A stretch of 64,000 bases of DNA from the NCBI RefSeq assembly GCF_013315695.1, contig NZ_CP054353.1; one strand, written 5' to 3'. The position numbers and the translations under genes were made by a program. Of the stretch, positions 17,368-51,499 are shown in pieces. This stretch comes from Escherichia coli. Lineage in GTDB: Bacteria; Pseudomonadota; Gammaproteobacteria; Enterobacterales; Enterobacteriaceae. Within the stretch, counting starts at the first letter, position 1. The number at the start of each line of letters is the position of its first letter. The notes beneath the pieces are model-generated. The model saw only the letters and a program-made list of their open reading frames with translations. It was not told the DNA's origin and did not search any database.

Positions 17368-17443
17368 GGCCCTTTAGCTCAGTGGTGAGAGCGAGCGACT
17401 CATAATCGCCAGGTCGCTGGTTCAAATCCAGCAAGGGCCACCA
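17368..17443 (+). tRNA. ileZ: Prophage tRNA with CAU anticodon, Ile2 (lysidine) type, ileZ-like
   Basis: GGCCCTTTAGCTCAGTGGTGAGAGCGAGCGACTCATAATCGCCAGGTCGCTGGTTCAAATCCAGCAAGGGCCACCA; close to host ileX in sequence. Confidence 0.85.
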
Positions 17444-17543: not shown

Positions 17544-17617
17544 GCGTTGTTAGCTCAGCCGGACAGAGCAATTGCCTTCTAAGCAATCGGTCACTGGTTC
17601 GAATCCAGTACAGCGCG
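17544..17617 (+). tRNA. Prophage tRNA-Arg (UCU), argO/argN-like
   Basis: Acceptor GCGTTGT/ACAGCGC, D-stem GCTC/GAGC, anticodon stem ATTGC/GCAAT with loop CTTCTAA, T-arm ACTGGTTCGAATCCAGT; no encoded CCA. Confidence 0.8.
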
Positions 17618-17730
17618 CTATATTCATTCTTCCAGATTCCTTCCGGCAGAGCCTTATACTGAAATATACCTGGCTCAGGATATTGTTGAAAATATTATAT
17701 GTTTGTCAAAAATAAAAGTTCTGTTAAGTA

Positions 17731-48587: not shown

Positions 48588-48875
48588 ATGGATATCACGT
48601 CGATACTTCATGCGCTTTGTGCCGTAGCGGTGCAGGTACTGGCTGGTCTTTTTACCGGAAACTGGGCTTACGGTGCGATAGCCGGTTGTACGTTCTTCAT
48701 TGCGCGTGAACACACCCAGGCAGAATATCGCTGGATTGAAATGTTTGGGCATGGCAAGAGGATTAACATGCCGTGGTGGGGCGGTTTTGATCCGCGCGTG
48801 TGGGATGTGGCAAGCCTGATGGATTTTGCTGTGCCGGTGGTGGCGTGTCTGCTGATCTGGATGTTGATCCGTTAA
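48588..48875 (+). CDS. Hypothetical membrane protein, 95 aa, last prophage gene before attR
   Basis: MDITSILHALCAVAVQVLAGLFTGNWAYGAIAGCTFFIAREH...; two or three hydrophobic segments. Confidence 0.5.
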   Translation: MDITSILHALCAVAVQVLAGLFTGNWAYGAIAGCTFFIAREHTQAEYRWIEMFGHGKRINMPWWGGFDPRVWDVASLMDFAVPVVACLLIWMLIR

Positions 48876-49112
48876 ATATAAAAAGTAAAAAGCCGCAGTA
48901 ACTTGTCATGACAGGATACTGCGGCTGGCTGGTTAACTTTCGATAGTGCGAGTATTGAATGATTTCCAGCTGTTACTGATTTTATATAACTGCAGTGGAA
49001 TTATTCAACACACAGGCAAAACGGAATAAGCTGAGAAAAAAAGCGTGCTTTCCCAATCTGGGGTAAATCACATCTGAATGACACCTGAAAACAGGTGGTG
49101 GCCTCAAGAAGG

Positions 49113-49185
49113 CTTGGAATATTCTTCTTTAATGTTATGTAATTTATTGATTTTTCGTGTACGATTTTAAGACATTTATTCCAAG
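49113..49185. repeat. CTTGGAATAT arm-type motif copies flanking attR (one direct, one inverted)
   Basis: cttggaatat at 49113-49122 and attccaag at 49178-49185; same motif as 1882-1914. Confidence 0.45.
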
Positions 49186-49224
49186 AAAAATTTTTAACTC
49201 TTTGATTTTTCGACTCTGTATCAT

Positions 49225-49286
49225 CGGTCTCGAAAACCGGAGTAGGGGCAACTCTACCGGGGGTTCAAATCCCCCTCTCTCCGCCA
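49225..49286. other. attR core: displaced original 3' part of serU
   Basis: CGGTCTCGAAAACCGGAGTAGGGGCAACTCTACCGGGGGTTCAAATCCCCCTCTCTCCGCCA, no 5' half of the tRNA upstream. Confidence 0.85.
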
Positions 49287-49830
49287 CTTTATCAATGACT
49301 TATCTCCCGACTTCCCGCCTTGCTTTTCCTAAACAGAACAATCGTAGAATATTCTTGAAGGGTTAGATCGTCACTGTTTTCTGTTCGATACTGTGACATT
49401 CAGCACTTGATTCGCTATGGAGCTGACAGGAAGGTTTCGAGCGAAAATCTACAGTTATTCAGTCGTTTTCTTATCGATCACCATTATTCTTTTAGACATT
49501 GATCCTATGAAACTGCCGCAAAGTTGCTGGCGGGAACTGAAGTTGCGTAGAGAAGGGGTCAATAATTGAGCCAAAAAAGGAACGCGGCCGTCAGATTAAA
49601 GCCGCGGGACAAAGTCCATAATTTCCAAGAGTTGTTGAATTTCCCAGCTTTTTTGAAAGCCTTTGTATTATACTAACAAGTAAAAAAGGTTTAAACACCA
49701 AAATTAACCTATATTTCTGGTTAGCTTTACCATGACAGATGACTTGCTCCTGGAAACATTTGCGCTGCCAGTCTGTATGGCTGAGTTGTGTATTTATTGT
49801 TCGCCTTTTTCGCAGTTTTTTTCTACAGAC

Positions 49831-49867
49831 ATAATAAAAAAGACACGACTCAAGTATGAGCGTGTCT
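49831..49867 (-). terminator. Intrinsic terminator of zinT
   Basis: Reverse strand agacacgctcatacttgagtcgtgtct hairpin followed by tttttatt. Confidence 0.7.
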
Positions 49868-49955
49868 GAGTTTGTCTTACTTATTTGTCTTGGTAAATTA
49901 TTGTTGTTACTACCAGGCACTGTTCTGTTAAATAACTGAAGTCAGCGCAAAAAAA

Positions 49956-50606
49956 TCAATGAGACATCATCTCCTCGACCACTTCTTCGCTACTCAACTG
50001 ATAGGGATAATACGTTGGCCAGTTTTCCATTTCATTCAATAAAGATTGCTGGGAATCATTACCCATAAAAATGTGAAAATGAGATGATTTTCGTGGTGCA
50101 ATTATATGATCGCTAAATTGTATATATTTAGGGGCTTTGCTTTCAGGATCTTTACATTCGAATAAGTAACGAACGCCTTTCTTGCCTGATTTATAGGTGA
50201 GTATTTTGTATCCATCGTAATCATATTTACAGGATGTTGTTTCATTATTTCTATGGAATTCGACAATGCCGTCCTCAATGCCAATCATTTCGATATCTGT
50301 CGCATAACCTTTGCGATAATAATCTTTAATTTCAGCAAATGGTTTGGTTTTATCTGCATCCGCTTTCTTCTGAAAGACGGGATCAAGTTTGCCACTTTGC
50401 AGTAAAGGGTAAACGGATTGCCAGACTCCATCCCAGTCACTGAGCGTTCGGTTTTGTACATTGGTATCATCAAAAACACCATTAGCAGCTTTTTGTTCGA
50501 CCTCTGTTAAGGGTTTGCCGTGTGAGTGATGACCATGCGAAAAGGCAGGAGCGCTAACAATAAAGACACCTAAAGCAACAGCCAGTTTATGAAGACGAAT
50601 CGCCAA
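49956..50606 (-). CDS. zinT: Zinc/cadmium-binding periplasmic protein ZinT (YodA)
   Basis: 216 aa; signal peptide then HGHHSHG His-rich motif. Confidence 0.9.
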
Positions 50607-50863
50607 AACAATTTCCTCCAGAGTTAATGTACATGATGTGTAATGTTATATTGTAACATATGAAAAAATGCAACAACTCATTAGGAAATGAGAGCATGGT
50701 ATTCTCAGGTGTATTTAACTATCTTATTGAAATAAAATAAATTATTCTGGTGATGAAAGGTTGATGACAAACGAAACATAACTTGATGCGATCTGTGTGG
50801 GCCGGATAGGGCGCTCGCGCCGCATCCGGCCGGGATAACGCGAAGTTTGTCGGCAATATGAAG

Positions 50864-51499
50864 TTATAGAGATAATTTGTTGTGGGCCTGCTTGCGTAAC
50901 CGGTTGAAAAGGGAAAGCAACTTCTTATACCGTAAGGCTAAAAGCAGTACAGCCAGCCCAGCGTAGATGAGTGGCTGCGGTGAAATAATCTTCACTGACC
51001 ACAGATAATGTATTGGGGCCAGGATCGCGACAAGATAGACGAAGTTATGCAACTGTTGCCAGTGTTTGCCGAGTTTTCGCTGCATCGACTGGGTTGAAGT
51101 GAACGCTAAAGCAAGCAAAATAACCCAGCTGATAATTCCTAACGTTAAATAAGGCCGGGTAATTAACTCCTTACCTAATAACGCCAGATTATTCACGCCC
51201 AACTCCAGCAATGCGTAACTGGTTAAATGCAGTGTCGCCCAGGCAAAGCACCATAAGCCTAACAGGCGGCGAGTGCGTATCAATAACGGCTGTTTTGCGT
51301 AGCGTGCCAGAGGTGTGATTAACAAGGCCGCAAGCAAAAATTTCAGTGCAGTGCGACCGGTAAAATGCTGAATATCTTTCACCGGATCGGCACCTAGTCC
51401 ACCGTGATTGATCGCCCAGACCAGCCAGAGAAACGGCAACAATCCGGCAAGATGCAGGCAAACTTTCAGCCATATCACCTGCTTTGCTGTCAGACGCAT
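50864..51499 (-). CDS. msrQ: MsrQ (YedZ), heme-binding membrane subunit of the MsrPQ system
   Basis: 211 aa polytopic membrane protein, [28 protein letters not shown]... Confidence 0.9.

Follow-up and report, generated by a model that had tools for sequence, protein, structure and literature searches.

The zinT–serU interval of the Escherichia coli genome analyzed here lacks yodB, the cytochrome b561-like gene found at this place in K-12. We read it, with a probability of roughly 0.8, as an ordinary, probably ancestral spacer, yodB having been brought in by a later replacement in the lineage of phylogroups A, B1, and E, and the neighboring prophage being unrelated to its absence. All positions refer to the window, that is, the whole stretch of 64,000 nucleotides under analysis (contig NZ_CP054353.1). 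The original prediction, made from the letters alone, described a short, AT-rich interval of about 670 bp without yodB. Alignment and tblastn searches confirm this description: the interval spans 669 bp (49287–49955), from the attR fragment of serU to the zinT stop codon (49956), at 38–40% G+C (0.396 for 49287–49733 and 0.378 for 49734–49955).

The orientation of the window is the reverse of the K-12 map. The gene asnT (680–755, minus strand) is followed by mtfA and by an intact tRNA-Ser(CGA) gene, serU (1747–1836, plus strand), which constitutes attL and is the sole copy called as a tRNA. A lambdoid prophage of ~47 kb (about 1837–49224) splits serU; its right end is marked by attR, a 62-nt copy of the serU 3′ part (49225–49286, plus strand) that is 100% identical to K-12 serU. 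The direct repeat formed by 1775–1836 and 49225–49286 contains two mismatches and 31 nt of exact identity. Beyond the interval, its left anchor zinT (49956–50606, minus strand), a 216-aa ORF for the metal-binding protein ZinT, is followed by msrQ and msrP. Where serU at attL and the attR fragment differ, at two positions, the changes compensate each other within the variable arm (GTGGGG...CTCCAC versus GTAGGG...CTCTAC); as the attR fragment has the K-12 serU sequence, the working tRNA gene at attL carries a phage-supplied 3′ part. The prophage also encodes a tRNA-Met and a tRNA-Arg(TCT) of its own (17368–17443 and 17544–17618). At the opposite end of this region, the 5′ part of the integrase gene of the HPI (yersiniabactin island) adjoins asnT (1–518, 99.6% identical to the SE15 region), indicating that the strain carries the HPI at asnT, like SE15, IAI39, and 042.

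In the MG1655 record the gene order is msrP-msrQ-zinT-yodB-serU-mtfA-asnT, so that the K-12 order zinT, yodB, serU given in the original prediction was correct. There, zinT and the 531-bp yodB are separated by 342 bp, and yodB and serU by 569 bp, adding up to a zinT–serU distance of 1442 bp. Alignment of the interval with its K-12 counterpart, the check that had been proposed, yielded two collinear flanks. Window positions 49225–49733 match K-12 2043529–2043021 at 96.3% identity, a match that reaches 122 bp past the yodB stop codon, and the sequence from 49956 onward matches K-12 zinT, msrQ, and msrP at 97%. Homology ends exactly at the zinT stop codon and at 49733/49734, and between these two points lie 222 bp in the window versus 995 bp in K-12 (2042026–2043020), the latter including yodB. 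The interval is thus composed of a serU-proximal spacer of 447 bp (49287–49733), common to both alleles, equivalent to the K-12 yodB-serU intergenic region and without a supported gene, and an allele-specific 222-bp zinT 3′ flank (49734–49955, minus strand) that sits where K-12-type strains have the yodB-containing block. The difference between 222 and 995 bp is a replacement and no clean deletion. Compared with the K-12 zinT-yodB-serU segment (b1973–b1975), the window therefore has the same flanking genes in the same order, with flanks 96–97% identical, and differs in having 222 unrelated base pairs in place of the 995.

The window carries an empty site free of remnants. When the 222-bp segment was locally aligned with the yodB block of K-12, no remnant of yodB emerged, and tblastn with K-12 YodB produced only noise over the whole 64-kb window (best E = 0.36, outside the interval); an ORF or remnant of the cytochrome b561/YodB family (Pfam PF01292) is absent from the interval and from the window by the same search. 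The only significant similarity between the 222-bp segment and the K-12 block is a stretch of 39 nt, 82% identical and matched by 0/300 shuffles, which corresponds to a terminator hairpin. Outside the interval, divergence from K-12 is highest at the msrQ 3′ end and in the msrQ-zinT intergenic region (50607–50900), with 27 differences per 300 bp versus 1–4 per 100 bp elsewhere; a weak REP/naRNA4-like match is located at 50800–50841.

The hairpin at 49831–49867 (minus strand) is the predicted intrinsic terminator of zinT. Situated 89–125 nt past the zinT stop codon, it comprises a stable, G+C-rich hairpin (49867–49841) directly followed by the U-run UUUUUUAUUAU, and folds at -17.9 kcal/mol (z = -4.2), a stability reached by 0/200 shuffles. 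K-12 and E. albertii each have an equivalent hairpin equally far from the zinT stop codon, with fold energies of -19.7 and -18.6 kcal/mol, respectively; the E. albertii hairpin shows one A-U to G-C double change relative to the window. A simple terminator scan missed this structure because its stem contains a bulge. A second hairpin (49583–49606, minus strand) was dismissed, being no more stable than shuffled sequences, and the sequence downstream of K-12 yodB likewise folds no more stably than shuffles. In the interval as well as in the K-12 block, matches to promoter and terminator consensus sequences occurred about as often as in shuffled sequences, and an Rfam scan of 48800–50900 revealed no family at gathering score, its sub-threshold matches stemming from the tRNA fragment and the REP-like element. 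The original prediction had further stated that the interval is free of hydrophobic ORFs. This holds for any yodB-like ORF, but a 50-aa ORF at 49417–49569 (plus strand), intact in K-12, does include a hydrophobic stretch. We do not regard it as a gene: all nine nucleotide differences from K-12 (9/9) are nonsynonymous, which argues against a protein under selection.

Across E. coli, the zinT–serU site displays a clean two-allele polymorphism. The K-12 yodB block is present in 3114 of 5426 complete genomes and the 222-bp allele in 2271 (~42%), and nearly all of the complete genomes have the shared spacer. Many independent genomes share the empty allele, and it was not seen alongside the occupied one: the two were mutually exclusive in every one of the 59 genomes sampled. 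This was determined with a chimeric query consisting of the interval and the yodB coding sequence in opposite relative orientation, with rows sampled evenly down the ranking; the query found one matching place in 25/25 short-allele genomes and two or three in 34/34 yodB genomes, a comparison in which megablast would miss a yodB copy below about 85% identity, for instance a prophage-borne homolog. An earlier chimeric query (phage end, attR, interval, and yodB) was uninformative, as phage and tRNA repeats add matching places, and was replaced by the one without them. The short allele is found in SE15 and Nissle 1917 (both B2), IAI39 (F), and 042 (D), and the yodB allele in phylogroups A (K-12, HS), B1 (O111:H8), and E (O157:H7); the phylogroup assignments of these strains are taken as given. 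The short allele is also present, at 99.1% identity, in the O111:H11 strain 8D (NZ_CP077469.1). Should this strain belong to phylogroup B1, the short allele has crossed phylogroups by recombination, and its distribution may accordingly not follow phylogroups strictly.

One of the two options in the original prediction has yodB lost, which is probably the wrong direction, since the sister species E. albertii shares the short layout. Outgroups were scanned with ZinT, using one genome per species, which yielded one E. albertii genome, one genome of a cryptic Escherichia clade, and genomes of many other genera; the Escherichia outgroups are these two genomes, and E. fergusonii, E. marmotae, and E. 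ruysiae are not among them. In E. albertii (NBRC 107761, a single genome) zinT and serU are 567 bp apart and the layout is empty. Its sequence has diverged and about 110 bp of the mid-spacer are missing, yet 127 nt align with the 222-bp segment at 68% identity, a score that 0/300 shuffles reach, and the alignment crosses the K-12 breakpoint into the shared spacer. E. coli and E. albertii have about 38 bp in common in their short alleles, with homology continuing across the breakpoint, and K-12 lacks this sequence. Identity between the window and E. albertii amounts to about 68% in the zinT-proximal flank versus 88–92% in the flanks. The strong divergence of this zinT-proximal flank among all three alleles suggests that it may have been replaced repeatedly by recombination, a pattern that counts against a firm polarity. 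The cryptic-clade genome (Escherichia sp. MOD1-EC7003; L005, 6649–12096) is uninformative on polarity: its zinT stop is followed by 5 bp and then by the equivalent of window position 49432, with about 521 bp of the spacer missing. After its serU remnant this genome contains a different island, which encodes a tyrosine integrase and a 565-aa pentapeptide-repeat-like protein and also includes pilin-like genes. In about 75 zinT loci from other genera, no yodB homolog was detected within 6 kb of zinT. YodB matches at 84–92% identity (P0047, P0059, P0011) were considered as copies from other species and rejected, since each is an E. coli copy that carries a frameshift and lies at the usual locus.

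On the E. albertii layout, the short form is most likely ancestral and yodB a gain rather than a loss; we infer this direction and hold it to be likely, not placing it higher because of the thin outgroup sampling. Given the accepted branching order of the E. coli phylogroups, a single gain on the A/B1/E stem is the most economical reading. The converse, in which yodB was ancestral at the locus and one or more losses removed it from E. albertii and from B2, D, and F, the short allele then spreading by homologous recombination, is unlikely. It gains from the same thin sampling, from the fact that homologous recombination is common between E. coli lineages, and from the copy of the zinT terminator that the K-12 block retains at equal distance from the stop, by which the zinT-proximal parts would share an ancestor. 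A simple deletion of yodB would, however, not generate sequence shared with E. albertii, and the homology of the two short alleles runs continuously across the breakpoint, through a stretch that K-12 is missing. The closest relatives of YodB are, moreover, mobile prophage cargo and not syntenic chromosomal genes, and none of the other genera scanned has yodB beside zinT.

A copy of yodB present in the genome but relocated outside the window is very improbable. The 64 kb of the window are the only part of this genome that could be read directly, which leaves such a copy some room, but the window holds no YodB-like sequence. NZ_OZ547117.1, which equals the window at 100% identity over both the interval and the prophage junction, has one matching place for the interval and yodB query at the reach of megablast (about 85% identity), as do the 24 other sampled short-allele genomes, and the sum of both alleles, 3114 + 2271 = 5385 of 5426 genomes, leaves no room for frequent co-occurrence.

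Of the two explanations offered in the original prediction, a lineage lacking yodB is borne out by the 2271 genomes, whereas a loss associated with the prophage or an island is contradicted by SE15, IAI39, and the SerU-LTIIb record. The absence of yodB is independent of the serU prophage and of the HPI at asnT. SE15 and IAI39 contain an intact serU, a 669-bp interval, and then zinT, without a prophage at this site. Their layout equals that of the window, except that serU of the window is split by ~47 kb of prophage and only the attR fragment adjoins the interval. The SE15 interval is 99.9% identical to that of the window over the full 669 bp, and the IAI39 interval about 97% identical (~95% in the 222-bp part). 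Conversely, the GenBank record of the SerU-LTIIb prophage, from a yodB-positive host, comprises the 62-nt attR fragment seen in the window, then the spacer, and then yodB; absence and element are therefore not coupled. Neither does the putative deletion endpoint abut the attachment site or an element end: the breakpoint with K-12 (49733/49734) lies 447 bp from the att site, and these 447 bp are intact and collinear with K-12. In strain 042 (D), which has the short allele, a related prophage occupies serU. This 042 prophage shares its last gene and its attR junction with that of the window, with 97% identity over window positions 48588–50700, and has a frameshifted integrase gene adjoining serU. 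Deletion of yodB by imprecise integration or excision of a prophage at serU, or upon acquisition of a neighboring island, is thus refuted as an explanation. In its favor stand the prophage that sits at serU in the window and the nearby HPI; against it, prophage-free strains share the interval, the sequence bordering the att site shows no loss, yodB is retained in a strain that has both the gene and a serU prophage, and the 222-bp segment is no deletion scar but replacement sequence with homology to E. albertii.

From these comparisons we propose the following history of the interval. The yodB-less spacer carried by phylogroups B2, D, and F and by E. albertii consists of the 447-bp portion common to all E. 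coli and the 222-bp zinT 3′ flank, whose recognizable element is the zinT terminator. On the branch that gave rise to A, B1, and E (K-12, O157:H7, and relatives), the 222-bp flank would have been replaced by the 995-bp segment that brought yodB, this incoming segment retaining only a recognizable copy of the terminator hairpin. The lambdoid prophage would have entered the serU 3′ end later, 447 bp from the allele boundary, and is unrelated to the absence of yodB.

The relatives of YodB hint at where the incoming segment may come from. The closest homologs outside E. coli share 61–77% amino-acid identity. In Citrobacter portucalensis, Salmonella enterica, Hafnia paralvei, and one metagenome group, the homologous genes are flanked on one side by a prophage lysis cassette (holin, lysozyme, Rz) and on the other by terminase genes or, in some prophages, by HNH genes. 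An E. coli copy at 61% identity is also located beside phage lysis genes. Phage morons, of which bor and lom of lambda are examples, are cargo genes that stand as independent units amid conserved phage genes, and the slot between lysis cassette and terminase is a classical moron position. The yodB homologs conform to this, being inserted between otherwise adjacent conserved phage genes, and the prophage-borne cytochrome b561 genes of the YodB family are transcribed opposite to the phage late genes (L085–L092, L096, L101; gene mostly at 5001–5540). Two Citrobacter-type copies lie in chromosomal islets beside bor or dinI, and the Salmonella copy at 65% identity is part of a pagC/mliC islet. K-12 YodB nests within the phage-associated clade in a neighbor-joining tree, calculated without support values, and at the nucleotide level K-12 is similar to some of the phage copies from 88 bp upstream of the yodB start codon onward.

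The K-12 block thus resembles phage morons in that its homologs are phage cargo and YodB falls inside their clade, but differs in that no remnants of phage genes flank yodB. Its composition is unremarkable (G+C 0.42 versus 0.38–0.40 in the flanks), and a scan of the block revealed no clear promoter or terminator consensus. DNA and protein searches of isolated-phage genomes found no close copy of the block, the only matches being the chromosomal flank of SerU-LTIIb and Acinetobacter phage genes at 27%. We consider it possible, at somewhat less than even odds, that K-12 yodB is a domesticated prophage cargo gene (moron) whose insertion on the A/B1/E branch took place 447 bp away from serU, an attachment hot spot of phages, with the window keeping the empty ancestral site, as do B2, D, and F strains and E. 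albertii. The moron likeness concerns this proposed origin of the K-12 block and not the interval of the window. A literature search retrieved no statement of a yodB polymorphism between zinT and serU or of a phage origin for yodB.

If such an origin is true, YodB-type cytochrome b561 proteins would be a recurrent lysogenic-conversion function in Enterobacterales, and if yodB travels as prophage cargo, this b561-type cytochrome may serve an accessory role, possibly one related to stress or to the host, and would not belong to the E. coli core. The yodB-less interval itself is an ordinary and widespread difference in gene content, visible in thousands of annotated public genomes. The K-12 gene order is consequently an unsafe reference for strains of B2, D, or F, and a gene missing beside a prophage need not have been removed by that prophage.
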